Assembly: GCA_963711835.1 (NCBI GenBank)
Contig: CAVQFQ010000021.1
Span: forward strand, 294,632 to 358,631
Reading direction: 5' to 3'
Source of the DNA: an uncultured delta proteobacterium
GTDB lineage: Bacteria; Desulfobacterota; RBG-13-43-22
Length of the DNA: 64,000 nt
In this document: one piece after another, positions 1-12,187 of the stretch
Layout of the letters: the number at the start of each line of letters is the position of its first letter
Position numbering within the stretch: position 1 is the first letter of the stretch
Program-made: the position numbers and the translations under genes
Notes under the pieces: generated by a model
The model's database searches: none
The model's input: only the letters and a program-made list of their open reading frames with translations
Told to the model about the DNA's origin: nothing

Positions 1-2385
1 TTTAACCCCGCCGCCGCTCCCACAGCACTTGGCCAGAAGGCGGTTCAGCTTGAATTCTGTGAGTTCTACGCCGGGAAGCTGTTTCAAGAGCTGGCGCGGC
101 TCTTCGAAGATATTCATGTGTCGGCCCAGATCGCAGGGATCGTGATAGGCCACTTTCTGCCCGCCATTGCCTCCTTTCAAGGGAAGCCTGCCCTGGCTGA
201 TCAATTCATTGAGATAAGTGGTCACATGGTGGACCTTTATCCCTGAGCTGCCTCCGTAGGCCGGATACAGTTTGGCCAGGGTTCTAAAACAGCCCGGACA
301 ACTGGTGACGATTTCCTTTACCCCGAGCTCGGCAAATTTCTTGGTGTTGGCGCTGACGCAGGTCCTGAAATCATTTTCCAGACCGATCAGATAGCTCAAG
401 TAGCCGCAGCAGTCTTCTTCCTGGCCCAGTGTGGTATAGGAAATGCCCGCTTTGTCCAGAATGGTCATCAGGTTGGGGATCATGTTGATATCCTGATAGG
501 AGGCCACGCAGCCGGCAAAGAGAAGGACTTCGGCCCCTTTTTGTCCCTGTTTGAAACCTTCCGGAAAGACATCGGTCCGTTTTCCCCGGGGTTCCCCAAA
601 GGGATTGCCGTACTGGACGATGCTCCTGCTGCTGCTTTGAAACACCTCGGGCAAAAAGCCGCTTTCCACCAATCGTTTTCGAGCGGCCTGAACCACATCG
701 GAAACCTCGACCCGGGAAGGGCAGGTGTATTTGCAGTTCAAGCAGGTGGTGCACTGATAGAAACGCTCGGCCAACTCGGCTGAAGGCTGGAGGCGACCGC
801 TCATCAGGTTGAAGGCCAGCAGGACCCGGCCCCGGGCATTCATGGCTTCGAGATGACTTTGGGCATAGGTGGGGCAACCGGCCCGGCAAAAACCGCACTG
901 GATACAGGCCAGGATCTCATTGTCCACCTTGTCACCCAGGCTCCGGATGTCTTCCGGGGTTTCAAGAAGGTGGCGGAAGGCAAACTTGTCATAAATGTCT
1001 TCGATACTATCGGAAAAACCCATTTTCCCCGGATTCAGGATATTGTCCGGATCAAGGGTCTTCTTAATCTTTTCCATTACCTCGAGGGAAGCTCCCAGTT
1101 CTTCTTTGATGAAAGGGGACTTGGCCAGCCCCAAACCGTGCTCGGCGGTCAGGGTTCCTTTATACTTGAGTGTCAGCGCTACGAAATCCTTGGCAATCTT
1201 GCGCAGGGTCTCCCACTCCTCTTTTTTGCGGATGTCCATGAGAAGTACGGCATGGAGGTTGCCGTCCCCGATATGACCGAAGGTGGCAATCTGGGAATGG
1301 AATTTTTTCCCGATATCCTGGATTTCATGGATGACGTTTTTGATCTGGCTGATAGGCATGCCAAAATCTTCCACAATGGGGATCTGGCGGTATCCCGGTT
1401 TGACCCTCGAGAGGGAAGGCACCAGTCCCTGCCTGGCCGACCACATGACCAACCTTTTGGCCGGGTCATCGGACCATTCATTTCCCAGACCCCCAAATTC
1501 CTGGCAGATGGCATCGATTTGGGTGATATAATCCTGTACCGCCGCCTTATGCCCATCAATTTCTATAAAGAGGATGCACTTGACTTCCGGCGGAATCTCC
1601 AGGTTCATGGCCTTTTTGACCACTTCAATGGACATCTCATCCAGGATTTCACAGGAAGACAAGGGGATGCCTGAGGTCAAGATTTTCTCCACGGCATTTC
1701 CGGCTGATTCCACGGATGGGAAAGAAGCCTTAGCGAAGGCAATATAAGCCGGTTTGGGTAAAATCTTAAGTGTGGCGGAGGTAATGATTCCCAGGGTCCC
1801 TTCGGATGTGGAGAAGAGCCGGGTAAGGTCATAACCGGCGGAACTTTTCGGCGCCAGGGTTCCGGTTTTGATCACCTGGCCATCCGCCAGAACGACCTCC
1901 AATCCTTTGACGTAATCCCGGGTAGTGCCGTATTTGACCGCCCGGACCCCGCTGGCGTTGCAGGCGATCATGCCTCCAATGGTGCAGATAGGAGCGCTGC
2001 CCGGGTCAGGGGGGAAAAAGTGGGTTGGTTCAAGCCGAGCATTCAGGGCGTTGCAGACGATCCCCGGCTCAACAATGACGTAACCGTCGTTCTTATTGAT
2101 CTCCTTGATCTGGTTCATCCCGGAGAGGTCCAGCAGGATCCCGCCCTTGGCGGGCAGAACCGCACCGGTTACGCTGGTGCCGGCTCCCCGGGCCACCAGG
2201 GGAATTTTGTAGGCCGCCGCTATCTTGACTATGCCGACTACTTCTTCGGTAGTGTTAGCAAAAACAATTACATCCGGAATACCCTCGTGGACGGACATAT
2301 CCCGGGAAAAACTCATACAGTCTATGGTTCCGGTATGAACATTTCCTTCTCCAGCCACCTGTTTCAATTCATCGATATATCCCAT
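1..2385 (-). CDS. FAD-linked 2-hydroxyacid oxidoreductase (GlcD/Dld-like) fused to 4Fe-4S and CCG domains (GlcF/HdrD-like); runs off the window edge
   Basis: Absent from the ORF track because no stop lies in the window. Read by hand: ATG at 2385 after AAAAGGAG; FFPPDPGSAPICTIGGMIACNASG near 2000; Cys-rich ferredoxin motifs at 720-910; KCCGSGGGVK at 1-30; the checked segments share one frame. Confidence 0.88.
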   Translation of the reverse strand, partial: MGYIDELKQVAGEGNVHTGTIDCMSFSRDMSVHEGIPDVIVFANTTEEVVGIVKIAAAYKIPLVARGAGTSVTGAVLPAKGGILLDLSGMNQIKEINKNDGYVIVEPGIVCNALNARLEPTHFFPPDPGSAPICTIGGMIACNASGVRAVKYGTTRDYVKGLEVVLADGQVIKTGTLAPKSSAGYDLTRLFSTSEGTLGIITSATLKILPKPAYIAFAKASFPSVESAGNAVEKILTSGIPLSSCEILDEMSIEVVKKAMNLEIPPEVKCILFIEIDGHKAAVQDYITQIDAICQEFGGLGNEWSDDPAKRLVMWSARQGLVPSLSRVKPGYRQIPIVEDFGMPISQIKNVIHEIQDIGKKFHSQIATFGHIGDGNLHAVLLMDIRKKEEWETLRKIAKDFVALTLKYKGTLTAEHGLGLAKSPFIKEELGASLEVMEKIKKTLDPDNILNPGKMGFSDSIEDIYDKFAFRHLLETPEDIRSLGDKVDNEILACIQCGFCRAGCPTYAQSHLEAMNARGRVLLAFNLMSGRLQPSAELAERFYQCTTCLNCKYTCPSRVEVSDVVQAARKRLVESGFLPEVFQSSSRSIVQYGNPFGEPRGKRTDVFPEGFKQGQKGAEVLLFAGCVASYQDINMIPNLMTILDKAGISYTTLGQEEDCCGYLSYLIGLENDFRTCVSANTKKFAELGVKEIVTSCPGCFRTLAKLYPAYGGSSGIKVHHVTTYLNELISQGRLPLKGGNGGQKVAYHDPCDLGRHMNIFEEPRQLLKQLPGVELTEFKLNRLLAKCCGSGGGVK

Positions 2386-2559
2386 AATAAGACTCCTTTT
2401 GAATAGTGCGTTAAGACGCAAGGCGAAAAAACCAAGATGGATTGGGTTTACTGTTTGCTGGGTCTGTTTTCATCCTCGCTAATCTCCCGAGTTGAGAATA
2501 GGCTACCATTTTAGGCATCTCCCTTACCCTTTACGCCTTACGCCTTGCGACTGTCGTTG

Positions 2560-2991
2560 TTATTTATTAATTAAATCCTTGACCCGGGCTATTTCGGTTT
2601 CAATAAAAGGTTTGATATCCGAACCCGGCACCAGGTTTTGTTTTTCCCCTTCCGAATCTTCCGGAGCGATCTTACAGATCCAGCCCTTTTCGTAGGGCGA
2701 GGAATTAATCAATTCCGGTTCATCTTCCAGGGCTTCATTGACTGCGGTCACTTCGCCGGAAAACACGGCATAGATGCGGCCGACCCATTTCCCGGACTCC
2801 ATCGATCCAATCGGTTTGCCTTGCGTTACCTTTTGTCCTTTTTCCGGCATTTCCACATAACCGATGTCGCCGGCCAGCTTCTGGGCAAAGTCGGTGGTAC
2901 CCATGACGACCGTATCTCCCTCCAGCCGACCCCAAAAATGATTTTTATCATACCACAAATCATCCGGAAAAACGTAGCCTTCAATTTCCAT
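2560..2991 (-). CDS. gcvH: Glycine-cleavage-H-like lipoyl carrier protein (LbpA-like motif)
   Basis: WYDKNHFW...GTTDFAQKLAGDI...ESGKWVG (lipoyl-Lys)...PELINSSPYEKGWI. Confidence 0.9.
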   Translation of the reverse strand: MEIEGYVFPDDLWYDKNHFWGRLEGDTVVMGTTDFAQKLAGDIGYVEMPEKGQKVTQGKPIGSMESGKWVGRIYAVFSGEVTAVNEALEDEPELINSSPYEKGWICKIAPEDSEGEKQNLVPGSDIKPFIETEIARVKDLINK

Positions 2992-2993
2992 AC

Positions 2994-3875
2994 TCAGGCC
3001 TCCCTTTCAAATTGTTTTAGAAATTCCTTGTCTTTTACCCGGTTTAGTTTAAAGCCCAGGGCCTCGGGGCTGAAACCCATAGCCAGGCCCAGGAGCTGGG
3101 GATAGTAGAGCACCGGGACCTTCAGCTTCTGCTCCAGTTTTTTTTCAACCTTTTTTTGCTGCCCTTCGTACATAACGTTGCAGAAAGGGCAGATCAAAAC
3201 CAGACCATTTCCACCCAGGGTGTTAATCTCCGCCAATTTCTGCCCGGCCAGGGTATTGGCCAGCTCTTCCTTGGCCCCCAGGATGCTGCCCCCGCAGCAA
3301 TTCAGGAGTGTATCATAGAGCAAGGTCGTTGCTCCGGTAGCCTCAATCAGTTCCGATAAGGATCGGGGATTTTCCACCGGGTCGATCCCGCCGGTCGCCT
3401 CGGCCGGTTTGATGTAGTGGCAGCCGTAATGAGGTGCAAAACGAAATCCGGTCAGGGGCTGGGTCACTTTCGATTTGATTTTCTCAAGCCCGACTTCCTC
3501 ATAGAGGATACGAATAAAATGTTTGACCTGGATCGTTCCCTGGTAACTCAGTCCGATTTTCTGAAGCTCGCTGTTGACCCGGCTTCGCAGCTCCGGGTTG
3601 TGCGTCAGGAGGTGGTTGGCCTCGCTTAAGGAACCGCTGCAGGCGCTGCATAAGGTACAAATAGACAAGCCCTCTTTTTCAGCCAGAGCCATATTCCTGG
3701 CGGCAATGACCAGGGAATCCAGAACGCTCAGGGATTTTATGGGAAAGCCGCAGCACTGGAACGCTTCCAGGTCTACCAGCTCTATCCCGAACCCGGCAGC
3801 CACCAGACGAGCCGAAAGTTCGTAATTTAAATTACGGACCGGAACGGTACAGCCTAAAAAGAAAGCGTATTTCAT
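2994..3875 (-). CDS. hdrB: Heterodisulfide reductase subunit B
   Basis: Two CCG domains: FLGCT..QCCG..CSAC and HYGCH..NCCGG..CPFC; C-terminal YPQLLGLAMG. Confidence 0.95.
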   Translation of the reverse strand: MKYAFFLGCTVPVRNLNYELSARLVAAGFGIELVDLEAFQCCGFPIKSLSVLDSLVIAARNMALAEKEGLSICTLCSACSGSLSEANHLLTHNPELRSRVNSELQKIGLSYQGTIQVKHFIRILYEEVGLEKIKSKVTQPLTGFRFAPHYGCHYIKPAEATGGIDPVENPRSLSELIEATGATTLLYDTLLNCCGGSILGAKEELANTLAGQKLAEINTLGGNGLVLICPFCNVMYEGQQKKVEKKLEQKLKVPVLYYPQLLGLAMGFSPEALGFKLNRVKDKEFLKQFEREA

Positions 3876-3883
3876 TTTAGTTT

Positions 3884-4354
3884 CTAAGGAGTCAAGAGCT
3901 TTTTATAATCCCCAGGGTCGCTTTTTATTGTAGGCAGACCCAGTTCTTGACGCTTTTCATTTTCGAAGTCGCCGACTTCGTACATCCTGCCCTGCCGGCA
4001 GAGCAGATTCTGGGCCGCACCCATGCCCGCCGGGGCCAATCCCTTCCGAACCGCCATATTGCGCAGGGCAAAAATGACCTCGGTGAAATTAACCCCCTGG
4101 GGGCAGCTTTCCTGGCAGGTATAACAGGTCGAACAGTGCCAGAGGAATTCCTCCTTTAAAAGCGCCTCTTCCATCCCTAACAGGATCATGCGGATGATCT
4201 TCCGGGGATTGTATTCAGGTTCAATCTTTTCAATAGGGCACCTGGCCGAGCAGACCCCGCAAGCGTAACAGGTGCGGATATGCTCCCCGCCCAGTTCCTG
4301 AGCTACCCGGTGTTTAAAATCCGGATCCAATTTTTTCAGATCAATGCGTTCCAT
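3884..4354 (-). CDS. hdrC: Heterodisulfide reductase subunit C
   Basis: CYACGVCSARCP and CSTCYTCQESCP; adjacent to hdrB. Confidence 0.95.
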   Translation of the reverse strand: MERIDLKKLDPDFKHRVAQELGGEHIRTCYACGVCSARCPIEKIEPEYNPRKIIRMILLGMEEALLKEEFLWHCSTCYTCQESCPQGVNFTEVIFALRNMAVRKGLAPAGMGAAQNLLCRQGRMYEVGDFENEKRQELGLPTIKSDPGDYKKLLTP

Positions 4355-4419: not shown

Positions 4420-6076
4420 TTAAAGCTCTCTTATTTGTTTCCTAAAATCCGTTAGTACGTCTTTCAAAACCCAAACCCTATTGCTGGAGAGGGTCTCGAA
4501 ACGCACCCTTTGGGGATCTATCCCCGCCTCCTCCAGATAATCTTGGGCCTCGGCGATACGCTCCCGGGCATAGGTATTCCCATGCCGGGAACGACAATTT
4601 TCTTCGGGACAGGCCAGAACCAGCACCCCGTCGGCACCAATGGATAGCGCCTTGAGGAGATGATCAGGATCTATCTTTCCTGCACAGGGCAAGCCAGATG
4701 AATTCCACCTGGCTATCAGCTATCAGCTTTGAGCTATGTGCTTCTTCCCAGGCCACCCCGGCCGACCGCCGGCAGCCGAAAACGATGAACTTGGGATCAC
4801 CGGCTGCCTCCTTTTCCCACAGGGCGCTTATGTCAGCCAGGCGGTTTTCCACTTCCGGATCGGAATAACCGGCGATCTGAATGGCATCCATAGGGCATTC
4901 CCCGGCGCAGATGCCGCAGCGCCGACAGGCCAGAGGATGGATAAAAACCCGATGGGTCCAGCCGATGGCCTGATGGGGGCAGAAACGCAGGCAGGTCAGA
5001 CAAACGGTGCAAAGCCCCTTATCAACCCATACCTCGCGGTCCATGGGTTCCAAGGGATGGCCCTGGAAAAACTGATGGACGGCCAGGGCCGCTCCCCGGC
5101 CTTCTTCGATAGCGGCTGAGGCCATCTGAGGACCCTTAGCCGCTCCGGCGGCAAAGATCCCGGTCCTTTGCAGCCCATAGGGCCAGAAGTGAACATTTCC
5201 CGGCTGCAGGTAACCGGAGCGGTCCAGTCCCAATTGCGCCGAGTGCGCCAGGGACTGCATTTCAGCGGGGAGGGTATGCCCGGAATCGATGACCAGCAGG
5301 TCCGGTGTTAATTCAAAGGGCTGTCCCAACAGAGGATCCCTGAATTGAAGGGTGACCTGATCCCCGTTTTGAACAAATTCCGGCCTTTCGTTGTCAAATT
5401 TAAAAAAAACTACCCCGGCATCTCGGCATTCCTGATAAAGCCTCTCCAGTCCCTCCTCGGCCACTTTAATGTTGCCGGAAAAAAAATAAACCTGAGCTTC
5501 CAACCTGTTCCGGATGGCTATCGCCGCTTCCAAAGCCTGGGCCATGTCGGCAACTCCCCCGGAGCCGGTCAGCCCGACCAGAAAGGCCGCATACGAATGG
5601 GATTTCAACGAAGCAACAACTCCGGGAGCGGCCGGGAGGGAACTTAATTCCTCAACGAGGCGATCAAGGCTTATGGTCTGCCTGGAAGAAGCCGGAAGGC
5701 AGGTAGAACATTTTTGTTCCGGAACCAACTCCGGCGCCAGGATAATCGCCCCAACGGATTCGTTCCATTCTTTTTGGATGGATGTTAATCGAACCTGGAA
5801 ATCCCCGGCAAAGCCATCAACCGCATTGACCCGGGTTTCGGGAAAAAAAGAAAACTGGCCATGGGCTCCCAGCCGTTCCGCCAAATTCCGGGCGTAATCC
5901 GGCAGCTCCCGATCTCCCGGGAGCAAGGAATTTACCTTCTCCATGTCCATCTCCGGACAAGCTAATAAAACCTCATACCCGAAATGGATCAACTGGGAGG
6001 CGGCTTCCAGGGCCGTCAGCCCTCCGCCGACGGTTAACACCCGGGGCCTTTTTTGAAATTCCTGGAGGGGAATCAC
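4420..6076 (-). CDS. HdrA-like flavoprotein with 2x4Fe-4S and a C-terminal MvhD domain (QmoB-like architecture); frameshift near 4690
   Basis: Probable GTG start at 6076 overlaps the upstream stop. Motifs VGGGLTAL, CTVCLTCLRFCP, CRRCGICAGECP and FGCRRS, continuing in ORF 4420..4692 as PCAGKID..GADGVLVLACPEENC. Confidence 0.8.
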
Positions 6077-7141
6077 GCCGGATCTCCCTCCTTTAAAAAT
6101 TGCAGTACCTCTTCGGCCGCCTGCTGGGCCTGAGAGACCGACCTGGCAATGCTTTTGGGACCGCAAACGGTCCCGGCCATGAAAACCCCTTGGGCAGACG
6201 CAAGCGAAAACGAGGACCCGTTCCGGCCTAAGAATCCATCGGCCGTCAATGGGAGATTGAATAGTTGACTTAAACCGATTAGGTCTGCTCCCGGCATTAA
6301 ACCGATCGAAAGGACCACCAGATCAAAGGCTTCTTTTTGACTCGGCCGGCCGTCATCCTGCTGATAGGTCAGGATGAGTCGATCGTTGTCTCCTCCTTGA
6401 ACATCTCCCGGGATGGCCCGGATAAATCGTAATTGCTGTCGGGCTTCTTCCAGAAACATGGAAAAATCTTTTCCAAAATTCTGAATGTCCATATAAAAGA
6501 TCAGTGATCTCCGTTTCCGGCTTTTTGTATTTGAGAAGTGTTGCCATACGCAAGGCATACCCGCAACATACCTGGGAGCAAAAGGGATGTCCCAGATGCA
6601 GATCGCGGCTGCCGACACACTGAATAAAAGCGATGGACTTGGGCGGGGTTTGATCGGATGGCTTGAGGATACTCCCGGTTTCTTTGAGCTGTCTTTCCAG
6701 GTCCAAACCGGTGACTACGTTGGGAAGGTTTCCATAACGATACTGAGGTTTGTCTTCTGCCCTGAAGGGGGTAAAACCGGTGGCCAGGACCAGGGCCTCG
6801 GCCCTGCCCTCCCCGGCCCCTCCAGGGCCGCTAAAGGTGTAGAGGAAATCCTTTTGCTCCTTTTTTATTTCCTTGAGTTCCGTTTCAAGGTGGATCTGTA
6901 TCCGAGGCGTCTCACCCGGTCCTGCCAAAGCCAGTGATCTGAGGGTATCATTTAGAAGGCAGGCCCCGCACTGCTGACAGGCTTTGGTGGCTTTACAACA
7001 AAAATTGCGGACCATCCCGCCTAAGATCGGAGATTTTTCAATCAGGTCAACGGAAATATTCAGGCGGTTCAAGGCCAGGGCCGCTGTCAGGCCGGCAATG
7101 CCGCCGCCGAGGATTAATACGTTGGGGTTACTTGAGGTCAA
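6073..7141 (-). CDS. hdrA: Short HdrA-like FAD/Fe-S protein; frameshift near 6500
   Basis: ILGGGIAG, YRYGNLPNVVTGLDLE, FIQCVGSR..CSQVCC, then FYMDIQNFGK and GVFMAGTVCGPKSI across ORFs 6353..7141 and 6073..6618. Confidence 0.85.
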
Positions 7142-8017
7142 AGCAGTTCCCCTATCCGTTCCTCCGCCCCTCTGAGCAGGAGGTGGATTCCCCGAAAACG
7201 GCCGTCTTCCCTGACCGCCCGGATTACTCCTGCCGCCATCTCCAGGGAACGAGAGAGCATCTTCTCCTCTTCCAAGGTCCTAAATTCGTCAAGAACAGCC
7301 GGGGGAACGACCAGGCCCGGCAGGCGTCCCTTTAGGGGGCCGGCAAAATCCTTGGGCTTGAAAAGGCGGATCGTGGCCAGCAGGGGTTTCCCCGGTTTCT
7401 GCAATGATGGACAGGAATTCCCCAATGCCTTCCAGATCGAAGAGAGGATGGGTAATGAAAAAATCAGCCCCGGCCGCTATCTTCTTATGGAACTTGAGGA
7501 CCTGGGGTCCCAGGGGATCTGTTTTTAAAGGCACCAAAGCCCCGGCCGTAAATTGGGGCAGCCTTCCTTCCAGAGGTTTTCCCATGAGATTCGTTCCGGC
7601 CTTGAATTGGGAAATAGCTTGCAATAGTTGAATGGAATCGAGATCGAAGACCGGCTTGGCCTGGGGGTGATCTCCCCAGGAGAGGTAATCGCCGGTAAGG
7701 GCCAGGATATTGGAAATACCCAGGACGGCGGCACCCAGGAGGTCGGACTGCAAGGCCAGACGATTTCGGTCCCGGCAGGTCAGGGTCATAATGGGTTCAA
7801 GCCCTTGATCCAGGAGGTATCGGCTGAAGGCCAGGGGCGACATATGCAGTTTGGCCTGATGGTTGTCCGGGACAACCGCCGCTTGAACTTTCCCCTTAAG
7901 AAAGGCGATTTTATCGTCCTTAAGGGAAGGATCCGCACTGTGGGGCGGGTCCAGTTCACAAAGAATGATAAAGCGGTCCGAGGCCAAGGTCTGGGAGAAA
8001 CTACTGGGTTCCGGCAT
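7138..8017 (-). CDS. metF: Methylenetetrahydrofolate reductase; frameshift near 7400
   Basis: EPIMTLTCRDRNRLALQSDLLGA, ALTGDY..GDHPQAKPVFDLDS, KKIAAGADFFIT. Confidence 0.9.
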
Positions 8018-8684
8018 GATACCTCCGCAGGTAGGCTCTATGGGTTACCTTCCCGGGCCGGGTCTGCCGGCTGTAGTCGGCCGGAGGAAGGATGCCCTGG
8101 ATATTTTCCAGTCTGTTTTCTTCTGCCAAACGGTCATAGATCATAACCCAGGCACAGGGCCGGTCCGGATCCACCTCGCATTTTCCGCCGGCCATGCCTC
8201 CGCAGGGACCGTTGTTGAGTCCTTTGGTGCACATCGTTCTGGGACAGATGCCGCCGGTCAATGACAGGACGCAATCCCCGCAGGCCCGGCAGCGCTCGGT
8301 CCACATACCGGCCGCTTCGGTCACACCGATAAAGGTGGTGTTTACACCGGCATAGACCGGTTTGTCGGGATAGGCTTCGGCTAAGAATTGGATGCCGGCT
8401 CCACAGGCTAGCGACAAGAGGGCGTCGTACTCTCCGACCTGTTGGCGAATCATTTCCAGAAATTCCCGGTCGCATTGCCGCTCCAGGGTTACTTCGGAAA
8501 TCTTCACTTCTTTCTTGTCGAGTCGAAAATTCATCCGCAGTTGGCTGGCCAGGAGACCCACTTCCTTCTTGCCGCCGGCCAGGCAGACGGCCACACAGGT
8601 CCCGCAGCCGACGACCAAAATGTTTTGGTAGGGGGCCAGGAATTTTTTGATCTCTTCAAAGGGTTTTCGTTGGGCAACGATCAT
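8001..8684 (-). CDS. metV: MetV (methylene-THF reductase Fe-S/Zn partner subunit)
   Basis: GCGTCVAVC, LERQCD, LACGAG, ERCRACGDC..GICPRTMCTKGLNNGPCGG..CEVD..CAW; adjacent to metF. Confidence 0.92.
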   Translation of the reverse strand: MIVAQRKPFEEIKKFLAPYQNILVVGCGTCVAVCLAGGKKEVGLLASQLRMNFRLDKKEVKISEVTLERQCDREFLEMIRQQVGEYDALLSLACGAGIQFLAEAYPDKPVYAGVNTTFIGVTEAAGMWTERCRACGDCVLSLTGGICPRTMCTKGLNNGPCGGMAGGKCEVDPDRPCAWVMIYDRLAEENRLENIQGILPPADYSRQTRPGKVTHRAYLRRYHAGTQ

Positions 8685-8796
8685 AAAAATCACCTATGAA
8701 TCCGAAATTCAAAGTTCAAAGTGCAAAATGCAAAATGATAAAATTCCGAAATAACCCTTTCCCTAATTTTGCACTTTGCATTTTTCATTTTACATT

Positions 8797-8932
8797 TTGA
8801 TGGACTCGTAAAAAGTCATCAAAGCCGTCACCCCGGCGAAAGCCGGGGTCCAGAAGTGCTTGAGTTTCCTGGATTCCGGCTTCCGCCGGAATGACTCAGG
8901 GTAGATGATTTTAACTTTTTACGAACTTGTCA
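8797..8932. mobile_element. MITE-like element carrying a REP-like hairpin doublet
   Basis: Imperfect terminal inverted repeats TGATGGACTCGTAAAAAGT / ACTTTTTACGAACTTGTCA; inner hairpins GTCACCCCGGCGAAAGCCGGGGTC and GGATTCCGGCTTCCGCCGGAATGAC. Confidence 0.7.
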
Positions 8933-8939
8933 TTTTGAA

Positions 8940-9362
8940 TTATAGTTTTTTTTCTCTTTTAAGCGGATTCGGCCCTAATTCCCTCGCCCGCCGGTCATTT
9001 CTGTCACGGCTCGGGCCCAGGCCGGGGCGTCGGAGGCACCGATGTGGAACATCTCCAGACGTTCCGGTTCCAGTCCGATTTCTGTTAAAAGCGTTTTCGT
9101 GTATTCCACCCGCTCTTTCGCTCTGAGATTTCCTTCCAGGAAATGGCAGTCGCCGATTTCTCAGCCGCCGACCAGGACGGCATCGGCACCTCCTTTCAAA
9201 GGCCTTTAAAATATGCGGATATCAATCTTGCCGGTGCAGAGGTACTTTGACGATTCGAACGTTATGCGGGTACTGGAGCCGCATGGAACCGGCCATGTCC
9301 GCCGCCATATAGGTGCAGTAGGTGCAGACCATGGCAATAATTTTGGGTTCGAAGGATTCCAT
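8940..9362 (-). CDS. mvhD: MvhD [2Fe-2S] subunit, selenocysteine-containing; several indels
   Basis: MESFEPKIIAMVCTYCTYMAADMAGSMRLQYP..CTGKID..GADAVLVGG-TGA(9163-9161)-EIGDCHFLEGNLRAKERV..IGLEPERLEMF. Confidence 0.88.
9127..9160 (-). promoter_or_regulatory. Putative bacterial SECIS element of mvhD
   Basis: Hairpin ATTTCCT-GGA-AGGAAAT begins 17 nt after the in-frame UGA, with G first in the apical loop. Confidence 0.7.
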
Positions 9363-9533: not shown

Positions 9534-12187
9534 CTAACACGCCTCCAGCAGGGCCACATACTGGTCGTCCTGGAAGTGGCCGACCTGGATGGCCCCCTGG
9601 GGGCAGGCACTGGCGCAATTCCCGCAGCCCCGGCAGGCGGCCGGATCGATCTGGGCAAAATGGCGCTCGTTGATGCGCGGGACATTGAAAGGACAGACCC
9701 GCAGACAGGTCAGGCAGGCCACGCACCAATCCTCGTTCACCTCGGCCACTGGCCCGCCCACATAGATCAGCTTCTGGGACAGGATGGTGGCTGCCCGGGC
9801 CGCCGCCCCCTTGGCCTGGGACAGGCTTTCTTCAATGGATTTCGGGCCATGTCCCAGGCCGCAGAGGAACATCCCGGCTCGTAGAAACGGTCGAAGCCCT
9901 TACCCTGGGCGCGCATATCGATAAAGAAGATCGTGGTGTCAATATCGGCCTCGTGTTCCTTGGTGATCATGGCCTGCTTGGTAGCGTACATACAGCAGAC
10001 ATAGGAACAGTAGTCGGCCGATTGCGCCGTCGCGCGAGCCCACGCACTGGATCCAGGCCATTCCGGCTTGGTTTCTTACCATCGGAAGAGCCGATGGATA
10101 TGGCCTTCGAAGGGTCCGGCAGCGGACAGTATGCGCTCATATTCGATACTGGTCACCACATTGGGGTAGCGCCCGTAGCCGTATTCCTCTTTCAACCGGG
10201 CGTCAAAGATCTCAAAGCCGGGGCAGGCCACCACCGCCCCCACTTCCAAGGTAAGGTCCTGGCCGGTCATGGTGTGATCGATGGCTTTGGCCAGACAGAC
10301 CTTGACGCACTGATAACATTCCGAACAGATCCCGCACTCAGCAGGCATCGTTCGGCCTCGGTCAGGGTGGTCTCTTCCTGGAACGCTGGGGCCACTTCCT
10401 TGAAGTTTCCTTCCCGGGCGGCCGGGGGAATCTTGGTGATGGACAGGCGGGCCTTCTTCAGGACCCCCTCCGTGGAGGGCTTTTCATAGGACCAGTCTTC
10501 TTCCCGCCCGGCTTTCAGGTCCACCCCCTTGAGGTACCGGCGGATGCTTTCGGCGGCCTTCTTGCCGCTTTCCACGGCTTCGACCACCGACTTGGGGCCG
10601 TAAAAAACATCGGGCCGCAAAATACTGCGGAATAGGGGTTTGAAGAGAGACCGGGTTGCCCGCAGCCCCCCTCGGGGGTTATGGGCGACAACCTGCTGGT
10701 GGCAAAGGAGAGATCGGCCGCCTGCCCGATAGCCACGATAACCGTATCCCCGGTGAGGGCGGTCAAATCCTTTTCATCATACTGTTGCTGCAGGGCCCCT
10801 TGGGCATCGAGACGGCCGTGCACCGTTTGAATTCGATCCCAACTTTACCGCCTTCCTGGAGAAACCGCTTCGGACCGAGACTGTTCACGATTTCGATCCC
10901 TTCTTCGAGGGCCTCTTCGATCGACAATCCCAGGCGGCATTTCTTCCCGCTTTCGAGGAGATCAGGGTGACCTGCCCGGCGCCGTAGCCGTTGACGCTGA
11001 AGGCCACATCGACGGCCACATTGCCGCCGCCGATGACCAGGACTTTTTTCACCCAGGGGGATCGGGTTCTTCAAGGCCTAGTTCTTGGAGAAATTCATCC
11101 CTCGATAATCCCTGGGCAGGTCCTCCCCTCCATGTTCAGGCCCCACTCTATGTGCAGGCCGGTGCCGCGACGAAACATGCCGCCGAAAGCCCTCGGCCTT
11201 CAGGATATCGAAGGAAATATCCTGACCGAAGGTCATCCTGGTCTTGATTCCCATACCGAGGGCCTCGATGGTCCGAATTTCGGAACGGAGGATGTCCCGG
11301 GCAGGTGGTACTGGCAATGCCCGACGGCCATCCATGCCCCGGCCACAGGAAGTTTCTTAGACCGTTACTGGATACCCTGGGCGAGGAAAGGTGACCCAGT
11401 CCGGCGGACCGGAGTCATTATGGCGATTTTTTGGCCTTCCGTTCCTTGATCTCCCGGAACTGTAGCTTTTCCGCCGGGCCAGGTCCTCATCGGCCAGAGC
11501 TGCAGGTACTGGATCTGCATAGTGGCTGGTCGAATTCTCCGGCGGATGCCCAGGGGGACGGCGACAGACCCGGCCGCAGATTCCGGGAAAAGGATGGGCC
11601 TCTTCGCAAGAGGGCCAGGGCCTCCCGGGTATTTCTTCTGGTTGATCAGGGCGAGGGACCCTGGACGCTGACGTGGGCCGGGCAGGTGGCCTTGCAGGGG
11701 GAGGTCCCCCGGGCGATCGATGGCAAAGGTGGAAGGCACGGCCTGGGGAAAGTGATGGTAAATGGCCTTGCGCCGGTTCATCCCCTGGTTAAAATCGGCC
11801 GGCACCTCAACGGGGCAGACCTTGATGCACTCCCCGCAACCCGTACAGGCCTCTTCCCGAATAAAGCGGGGTTCTTTATGGAACTTGGGAAATCATAAAG
11901 CGGCCGGTCTCCATAGATCCCCGTTACCCGGCTTTGGGTCAGAAGCTCTATATTGGGTTGCCGGATACCTCGATCAGTTTGGGTGAAATCAGGCAATTCT
12001 AGCAGTCGTTGGTGGGAAAAGTCTTGTCCAACTGGGCCATGCACCGCGCGCTGCCCCTCACGTTGCGGGTGCCCGCCAGATAGACCTTAAAACCGGCATT
12101 GGCCAGGTCCAGGGCCGACTGCATCCCGGAAATGCCGGACCCGACCACCAAAACGGCACCGATCTTATTTGAATTGGGTTGGCTCAT
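9534..12187 (-). CDS. hdrA: Large HdrA with an inserted NAD(P)H/GltD-like module (HdrL-type); heavily frameshifted, with an apparent internal deletion
   Basis: [122 protein letters not shown]. Confidence 0.8.

Follow-up and report, generated by a model that had tools for sequence, protein, structure and literature searches.

What disulfide is turned over by heterodisulfide reductases of the HdrABC type in organisms without coenzyme M and coenzyme B (CoM/CoB) is an old question, to which, to our knowledge, no answer other than DsrC has been widely proposed; many hosts have no DsrC. The question is raised by a locus at the beginning of a 64,000-nucleotide stretch of DNA from an uncultured delta proteobacterium (assembly GCA_963711835.1, contig CAVQFQ010000021.1, positions 294,632 to 358,631 of the forward strand), which we call the window. 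Its minus strand carries the order hdrC-hdrB-(2 bp)-gcvH-like-glcD/CCG fusion. The gene order, the intact cluster ligands of both HdrB and the GlcD-CCG fusion, the distinct group formed by the GcvH-like protein (hereafter the carrier) and its linkage to CCG and lipoylation genes are established, and the module of carrier and Hdr is real and widespread. Judging from the sequences compared, we consider it moderately probable that lipoamide on the carrier is the thiol/disulfide substrate of this subtype of HdrB, probably shared with the CCG dehydrogenase.

As the original prediction had it, 2 bp separate the hdrB stop from the carrier start (hdrB TGA at 2994–2996, carrier ATG at 2989–2991). A ribosome-binding-like AGGGAGG lies 7 nt before this ATG, in the end of hdrB, and suggests that translation of hdrB and the carrier is coupled. 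The predicted lipoyl-lysine context ESGKWVG was also confirmed, the carrier having ESGKWVGR where canonical GcvH has ESVKAASD. Lys68 within this motif (codon 2788–2790) aligns with the lysine of ESVK in solved GcvH structures and is the likely lipoyl site; the lysine of the lipoyl motif is also kept in sister forms that were found by profile and not by motif. The carrier has a calculated pI of 4.48 and a single cysteine, C106.

The carrier had further been labelled LbpA-type, after the lipoate-binding protein that is essential for sulfur oxidation and receives its modification from sLpl(AB) but not from E. coli Lpl(AB). LbpA is reported neither to complement a gcvH mutant nor to be active with GcvP/T/L. 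The motif ES[GA]KW[VA]G, in a definition that is our own reading, is present in the carrier, which has ESGKWVGR compared with ESGKWVGP in LbpA. A pattern search with ES[AG]KWVGP, which we take to be the LbpA motif, returned 120 stretches, including those of Hyphomicrobium, Ectothiorhodospira, Acidithiobacillus and Aquificaceae, and the proteins concerned mostly have cysteines near residues 7 and 145. A terminal cysteine pair is given as an LbpA feature in the accessible part of Kumpel et al. 2026 (bioRxiv 10.64898/2026.10.01.755906). None of 106 proteins with ESGKWVGR has both terminal cysteines, as against 135 of 147 other distinct KW[VAI]G proteins.

The carrier tree was built from 87 hand-picked rows and 142 columns; GcvH-L rows are not in it, and its LbpA rows are named by motif, cysteine pattern and host, not by comparison with published proteins. 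Neither the canonical GcvH clade (17 rows, 100/97) nor the LbpA1+2 clade (100/99, with a long stem) contains the window carrier. Of the 25 window-group rows, 24 group weakly (91/42) outside GcvH and LbpA, beside cysteine-less archaeal and other forms, and the union of the window group with core LbpA2 is rejected by the approximately unbiased test (p-AU 0.0006). With both terminal cysteines absent, the LbpA1+2 clade closed to the carrier and nesting in LbpA2 rejected, true LbpA membership was discarded, and the label cannot be kept in that sense. The missing cysteine pair and the position outside the GcvH and LbpA clades therefore define a third, cysteine-less group, LbpA-like in motif only.

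At the sites of ligase recognition in R. mucosus LbpA2 (TPRK51-54, R63 and P76), aligned via a Hyphomicrobium homologue, the carrier has GcvH-like EMPE, LbpA-like K59 and a basic R72, a mosaic as far as the alignment shows. The median pI of the window group (4.56) lies between those of GcvH (4.05) and LbpA2 (4.94). The carrier passes the GcvH family cut-off of PRK01202 (135.2/117) as well as that of TIGR00527 (Table 1), and lies below those of GcvH-L (TIGR03077, 47.3/144) and GcvH_rel_desulf (NF045810, 45.7/150).

Gene neighbourhoods were compared at 108 related loci, which remained after removal of 10 duplicate contigs. They derive from a first scan of 80 loci (42 at 54–87% identity and 38 more distant, canonical ones) and from a clade-alignment scan of which the best 80 of 432 relatives were kept; a further 80 rows from a scan seeded with Moorella naiadis, mostly more distant H-proteins, were excluded from the counts. 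At least four phyla are represented (by record title, Thermodesulfobacteriota 39, Bacillota 23, Chloroflexota 13, WOR-3 1, and 32 loosely labelled). The adjacency to hdrB is conserved, with hdrB within 3 kb of the carrier at 73/108 loci and any CCG-domain gene at 93/108; where at least 3 kb of flank is available on both sides, the values are 52/66 and 61/66, respectively. The pair glcD+CCG occurs at 46/108 loci, together with hdrB at 29/108, and a GlcF-type CCG gene at 50/108. A lipoate ligase gene is adjacent at 17/108 loci and LipS genes are present at several; metFV are found at 16/108, flx genes at 25/108 and a linked 2-hydroxyacyl-CoA dehydratase at 19/108. The gcvP gene was found at none of the 108 carrier loci and gcvT at one.

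At the 38 canonical-gcvH loci, hdrB within 3 kb and CCG genes were both absent, while gcvT was present at 17 and gcvP at 10. The linkage of hdrB and carrier is thus more than chance (73/108 versus 0/38), by a control that is weak because many of its hosts are, by record title, aerobe-type taxa; a within-phylum comparison was therefore added. Of note, the carrier stands after hdrB in the relatives of the window and in Desulfarculaceae and before hdrC in Syntrophaceae and Bacillota, so that the link has survived rearrangement.

For the within-phylum comparison, 301 genomes of the phylum were surveyed. The carrier profile gave 71 matches at E 1e-40 and, at 162 bits or more, 54 carrier genomes, which include sister forms (e.g., ESGKWLGKV, ETGKWLGKL); the window HdrB gave 77 matches at E 1e-55 and, at 284 bits or more, 34 subtype genomes, followed by a gap down to 262. 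By hand count, and with both score cut-offs set after the tables were seen, all 34 genomes with the HdrB subtype have the carrier or a sister form, compared with 54/301 overall and 11/43 with other HdrBs only; the 34 represent only seven families and are not independent. Carrier and hdrB are adjacent in 21/34 subtype genomes. Among ten relatives in the window's own family, six have both carrier and HdrB subtype and four have neither. The genomes with a cluster-type lipoate ligase fall almost entirely within the 54 carrier genomes (35/36), and lipA is present in 29/33 subtype genomes.

The partner proteins carry complete cluster motifs. HdrB keeps both CCG motifs, as predicted, in two complete CX31-39CCX33-36CXXC sequences (C9/41/42/76/79 and C152/193/194/229/232). 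These ten cysteines are invariant in 54 aligned HdrBs and align with cysteines of methanogen HdrB (5odc_B), compared with which the window HdrB is two residues shorter directly after each CCG. It stays under the methanogen TIGR03288 cut-off (Table 1), and comA was not found in the genome (other CoM/CoB genes were not searched). Carrier-adjacent HdrBs form a subtype clade of 13 rows (92/94) from three phyla, which branches apart from sHdrB2 and from the other HdrBs of the genome in a tree where sHdrB1 was not placed; the carrier also flanks HdrBs from at least four lineages beyond this main subtype. A complex prediction of HdrB with the carrier scored 0.02 against a mark of 0.32, with controls not folded, and counts neither way.

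The fusion protein (873 amino acids, aa) joins a GlcD-type FAD 2-hydroxyacid dehydrogenase, two [4Fe-4S] sites and a double-CCG module with both motifs complete; its last 66 aa lie beyond the window on the same contig. The C-terminal half matches TfrB best (145 bits, with GlcF at 99 and GlpC at 86, all below cut-off), TfrB being a subunit of the CoM/CoB-dependent fumarate reductase.

In the scheme that we propose, the carrier would be lipoylated on Lys68 and take the role that CoM-S-S-CoB has in methanogens. Its lipoyl dithiolane would be turned over at the non-cubane clusters of HdrB, and the GlcD-CCG fusion would use the same carrier as a second site. Judging by standard potentials, the favoured direction would be reduction of lipoamide by HdrABC-MvhD. 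The dihydrolipoamide could then drive the TfrB-like fusion from a 2-oxoacid to the (R)-2-hydroxyacid for the downstream CoA ligase and dehydratase, or alternatively feed the reduction of methylene-tetrahydrofolate (methylene-THF) through MetVF. An LpdA encoded elsewhere in the genome could tie the lipoyl pool to NADH, and bifurcation onto ferredoxin would need a donor at the level of H2 or formate, not NADH.

For pyruvate/lactate, NAD and H2, generally known potentials entered the calculation. Values of −290 mV for lipoamide and −200 mV for methylene-THF were taken from the accessible parts of PMC6067878 and PMC8515935, respectively. The computed cost of reducing lipoamide with a 2-hydroxyacid is +19 kJ/mol, and the reverse gains as much; electron transfer from dihydrolipoamide to methylene-THF gains 17 kJ/mol. 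Bifurcation onto lipoamide reaches only −350 mV from NADH, and reaches −538 mV from H2. We therefore favour the role of a lipoamide reductase for Hdr and that of a thiol:2-oxoacid reductase for the fusion, by analogy with methanogen Hdr and TfrAB. The electron shuttle between HdrB and the dehydrogenase, as originally predicted, is backed only in part, with both partners occurring together at 29/108 loci; as a flow from 2-hydroxyacid to lipoamide it would run about 19 kJ/mol uphill. The direction is the weakest step, because a dehydratase is linked at only 19 of the loci and the protein-bound potential may differ.

The rest of the genome (assembly of 3.9 Mb, 89% complete, 6.4% contaminated) has dsrAB, dsrC and acetyl-CoA synthase, and is therefore that of a sulfate-reducer-type anaerobe with a Wood–Ljungdahl pathway; the closest relatives that bear a name are MAGs of Desulfobacterota type. 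In genome-wide searches none of gcvP, gcvT, lpdA and lipoate ligase genes mapped to the window, in agreement with the prediction, and gcvP, gcvT and comA were not found anywhere in this 89% complete genome. Outside the window there are lpdA, two sets of lipB/lipA, two divergent genes of LplA type and another gcvH, which is canonical-type. This second gcvH is a neighbour of lpdA on contig C17, with a lipB-lipA fusion close by, the second lipA/lipB pair being located elsewhere; at G000:C17:325400-334550 this gcvH and lpdA follow a 4Fe-4S gene that is divergent from a PhsA-like molybdopterin enzyme, with lipB-lipA near (L016, L017). The lone PF03099 match of the genome was rejected as a lipoate ligase, being a BirA-type protein with an N-terminal helix-turn-helix. 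The genome has two more hdrB genes, neither of them with an H-protein gene in its vicinity.

Several findings weigh against lipoamide on the carrier as the HdrB substrate, in addition to the relatedness of the subtype genomes and the late choice of cut-offs already given. The carrier exceeds the GcvH equivalog cut-off, of which two scanned LbpAs fall short, and a sister position of the window group on the GcvH side is compatible with the data (p-AU 0.27). Carrier and hdrB lie apart in 13/34 subtype genomes; in 11 of these 13 that were inspected, the carrier is beside glcD/CCG or ligase and LipS genes in nine and alone in two. The HdrB subtype is absent from 20/54 carrier genomes, and gcvP occurs elsewhere in 36/53. 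CCG domains are also found in quinone-linked enzymes, e.g., GlcF and GlpC. DsrA is encoded in 29/33 subtype genomes, and the genome of the window itself has dsrAB and dsrC; LipS1/S2 were not found in it, nor was any protein closely homologous to the cluster-type ligase (the best match has about 30% identity). Lipoamide at −290 mV gives NADH a drive of only 30 mV. Finally, according to the accessible part of Kremp et al. 2022 (PMC9430772), free lipoate and dihydrolipoate had no effect on the Sporomusa MetVF-Hdr, for which proteinogenic dithiols are left open.

Four other explanations were considered. In one of them, which we hold to be unlikely, the lipoylated carrier has a GlcF/HdrD/TfrB-type CCG enzyme as its dedicated partner, and HdrB is a neighbour under common regulation that uses DsrC, some other disulfide or none. 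Sister subclades have [4Fe-4S]-CCG genes as neighbours, frequently together with glcD, ligase and lipS, and no hdrB, two archaeal cysteine-less forms (L192, L258) likewise sit with glcD-like and CCG genes, and both the 50 loci with a GlcF-type gene and the DsrC of the own genome fit this explanation. However, the glcD+CCG pair is missing in 45/74 hdrB loci, in Bacillota loci, which have no GlcF-type gene, hdrC comes directly after the carrier, and among 23 carrier genomes selected because they probably do not reduce sulfate (19 of them of unstated completeness) DsrC was found in one and is missing from 22. Quite unlikely, in our estimate, is a simpler anaerobic counterpart of sHdr, with the carrier as an LbpA-like sulfur carrier whose lipoyl arm handles sulfane sulfur and with Hdr reducing or oxidising persulfides. 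Such a role would suit the KWVG common to carrier and LbpA, the position of the carrier, which the GcvH split places with LbpA, and the DsrE-like genes that precede it at a few loci (L122, L123, L161, L171, L421, L426), but the carrier lacks the terminal cysteines, its HdrB is not sHdrB2, its usual neighbours are carbon and C1 enzymes, most loci have no DsrE-like match, and the one DsrE-like query had no match in the own genome.

An ordinary H-protein, serving glycine cleavage or lipoyl relay, that hitch-hikes with metVF via methylene-THF, as argued for clostridial Wood–Ljungdahl lpdA/gcvH, appears similarly improbable, since gcvP and gcvT are found at 0/108 and 1/108 loci and metFV at only 16/108, the own genome yielded neither gcvP nor gcvT and already has a canonical-type gcvH beside lpdA/lipBA, and the carrier falls outside the 100/97 GcvH clade. 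This explanation does account for the TIGR00527 score, for the acidic EMPE at a GcvH-type site together with the pI of 4.48, and for gcvP in 36/53 carrier genomes, and the accessible part of PMC8515935 reports no coupling of DLDH/lipoamide to MetFV in C. ljungdahlii. It is very unlikely that the carrier belongs to Hdr as an accessory or regulatory subunit, either unmodified or bearing a different modification: Lys68 aligns with the lipoyl-lysine of solved GcvH and is kept in the profile-found sister forms, and lipoate ligases (17/108) and LipS genes accompany the carrier. What speaks for such a subunit are Lys-less GcvH-related proteins near other redox clusters, namely, four GcvH-like proteins or domains without ES.K in the own genome and a Lys-less form directly before hdrC in G030, and the lack of a detectable cluster-type ligase in the own genome.

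Beyond lipoamide as the substrate of this HdrB subtype, a wider proposal is possible, which we put forward only tentatively. The third H-protein branch might be a general, diffusible lipoyl "bacterial heterodisulfide" with its own maturation genes, wiring CCG enzymes (the HdrB subtype and TfrB/HdrD/GlcF-like modules) not only in sulfate reducers and syntrophs but also in Bacillota, Chloroflexota and certain archaea, and the sulfur-oxidising LbpA might have arisen from its neighbourhood by gaining the cysteine pair.

The locus resembles several known systems in part. LbpA is essential for sHdr, which provides an experimental precedent (Cao et al. 2018, PMC6067878; see also Tanabe et al. 2023, PMC10332631; both in their accessible parts). 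Shared with sHdr-LbpA are a GcvH-fold carrier by HdrB-type genes, KW[VA]G after the lipoyl-lysine and often ligase and LipS1/S2 genes of its own, whereas the window carrier has no N- and C-terminal cysteines, lies outside the LbpA1+2 clade and comes from anaerobic hosts, and its partner is a single HdrCB with HdrA/MvhD and MetVF or Flx instead of the cluster sHdrC1B1A-H-C2B2. With canonical GcvH the carrier shares the Pfam family, length, aligned lysine, acidic pI and TIGR00527 score, but differs in its motif, a longer C-terminus, the absence of a gcvP neighbour and its place outside the clade. As in methanogen HdrABC-MvhD, HdrB has all ten ligands; unlike methanogen Hdr, it has the two 2-residue deletions after the CCG motifs, and comA was not found. 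TfrAB is the thiol:fumarate reductase of methanogens, and the fused CCG module, which matches TfrB best, suggests by analogy that one thiol pool could link two CCG enzymes. The potential of lipoamide lies some 150 mV below that of CoM-S-S-CoB. DsrC, with its DsrK/HdrD-type CCG proteins, is likewise small and offers a redox-active pair of sulfurs to CCG sites, but the carrier would use a cofactor dithiol rather than protein cysteines, and the module persists where DsrC was not found.

A lipoyl disulfide borne on GcvH was already suggested for HdrB in Culexarchaeia, with the Ehe hydrogenase and HdrA2B2C2, for an organism without CoM/CoB (Kohtz et al. 2022, PMC9723716); in its accessible part this proposal is short, concerns one archaeal cluster and neither defines a clade of carriers or a subtype of HdrB nor surveys bacteria. 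The bacterial carrier group and the HdrB subtype are not described in the open literature searched, subscription reviews and Dahl-lab supplementary tables being outside its scope. A lipoyl carrier for Hdr goes unmentioned in the accessible parts of PMC8674449, 10.1101/2023.11.21.568159, 10.64898/2026.04.10.717634 and PMC3949148.

The window joins hdrCB, hdrA, mvhD and metVF, similar to HdrCBA-MvhD-MetVF of Moorella and Sporomusa as described in the accessible part of PMC9430772. The proposed link to Moorella was not supported by the comparison. Among 23 genomes of the Moorella naiadis family, metV is present in 22 and a clade carrier in seven; none of these seven carriers is near metV, and a clade carrier is lacking in 15 of the 22 genomes with metV. 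Where an hdrB is listed at about 6 kb from metV, it is a different gene with a lower score. What the carrier explains is therefore a second Hdr, present in some genomes of the family, not the acetogenic MetVF-linked one. In five of these genomes the carrier heads the cluster gcvH-hdrC-hdrB-hdrA-mvhD-lpl-(flavoprotein)-lipS-lipS, the best genomic evidence that the carrier group is probably lipoylated for use with Hdr. A second pairing of H-protein and Hdr was observed at L427, L428 and L429 (Moorella-family genomes G340, G341 and G339), where a gcvH with the canonical motif ESVKSASDV directly follows hdrCBA-mvhD-flxCBA; the equivalent cluster in G324 (L430) has no gcvH.

The features of the locus are given in Table 1.

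Table 1. Features at the start of the window, with positions counted from its first nucleotide.
Feature	Position	Strand	Basis
GlcD-CCG fusion	1..2421	−	Pfam FAD_binding_4, FAD-oxidase_C, Fer4, CCG
Cys-less GcvH/LbpA-family carrier, 143 aa	2560..2991	−	PF01597 E 3e-38; TIGR00527 121.9 bits vs. cut-off 115.85
Shine–Dalgarno-like AGGGAGG	2999..3005	−	inside hdrB 3' end; read from sequence
hdrB, 293 aa, subtype with N-terminal FLGCxVPVR	2994..3875	−	TIGR03288 264.5 bits, below cut-off 345
hdrC, 156 aa	3884..4354	−	TIGR03290 E 4.5e-31, below cut-off
HdrA-like C-terminal half fused to MvhD	4420..6076	−	one frameshift near 4697
HdrA-like N-terminal half	6073..7141	−	one frameshift near 6500
MetF	7138..8017	−	PF02219; one frameshift near 7390
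MetV	8001..8693	−	PF12225 E 7.6e-36
MvhD, frameshifted	8993..9356	−	tblastn pieces, two frames
HdrA with GltD-like insert, several frameshifts, integrity uncertain	9537..12187	−	tblastn vs. two 1.5-kaa HdrA homologues

The extra base near 4697 is missing in close-strain contigs of two runs, that near 7390 in a contig of run X8, and indels at 10340 and 11607–11658 in the long hdrA were likewise revealed by close-strain contigs. The four indels are therefore probably assembly errors, and the relatives of the frameshifted upstream genes have intact frames. A pseudogene cluster was thus rejected; assembly error is the more likely origin of the frameshifts, with the long hdrA not cleared. RNA-library contigs of X8 cross the glcD-gcvH-hdrB junctions, but contigs cannot show transcription and give no evidence of expression. 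Between metV and mvhD, a palindromic intergenic repeat (8800–8900) has a depth in the thousands in sediment contigs and is therefore a widespread repeat element.

Downstream on the contig there are a 2-hydroxyacyl-CoA dehydratase-like gene (best model HadB, below cut-off), an activator and an acyl-CoA ligase. The latter, an AMP-binding enzyme of the acyl-CoA-ligase type at L001:14425-16026 (contig C21), has same-family counterparts (at least 55% identity) near the carrier at 53/108 loci, and in those of Syntrophaceae type the two genes are adjacent and divergent. The enzyme may activate the 2-hydroxyacid or, more speculatively, octanoate or lipoate.

Other lipoyl-related loci were also observed. 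In Desulfobacterota, recurrent clusters of lpdA-lipB-lipA ... gcvH-like-CCG protein-lipoate ligase-(lipS) (L315, L316, L317, L319, L320, L321, L339) surround a single carrier and a protein resembling HdrD/TfrB with two routes of lipoylation. At L337:2145-11735 (G249), directly upstream of same-subtype hdrC-hdrB-hdrA, there is a 2-oxoacid dehydrogenase-like gene set whose last member is lpdA-like; the place of the carrier might there be taken by an E2 lipoyl domain. The own genome has six metV-like and three hdrB genes (contigs C10, C17, C21, C23), two of the hdrB genes 5–9 kb from metV without a carrier. GcvH-like domains without the lipoyl-lysine are found at C19:30495, C21:100546, C17:316793, C17:689649 and L335:9791-13219, three of them in proteins of about 300 aa beside redox clusters or two-component genes. 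A lipoyl-domain protein of the 2-oxoacid dehydrogenase E2 type is encoded at G000:C5:44015, in an assembly that carries about 6% contamination.

Taken together, our results name a small, easily expressed candidate substrate and a recognisable HdrB subtype for HdrABC without CoM/CoB. With the cultured host Moorella naiadis (L122), in which carrier, Hdr and lipoylation genes lie in one cluster, the question becomes directly testable; the Moorella/Sporomusa MetVF-Hdr case would not be settled by it. If lipoamide on the carrier is indeed the substrate, its low potential would change energy models which assume that every such HdrABC bifurcates from NADH, and anaerobic electron transfer would join oxidative catabolism and sulfur oxidation among the uses of lipoate.

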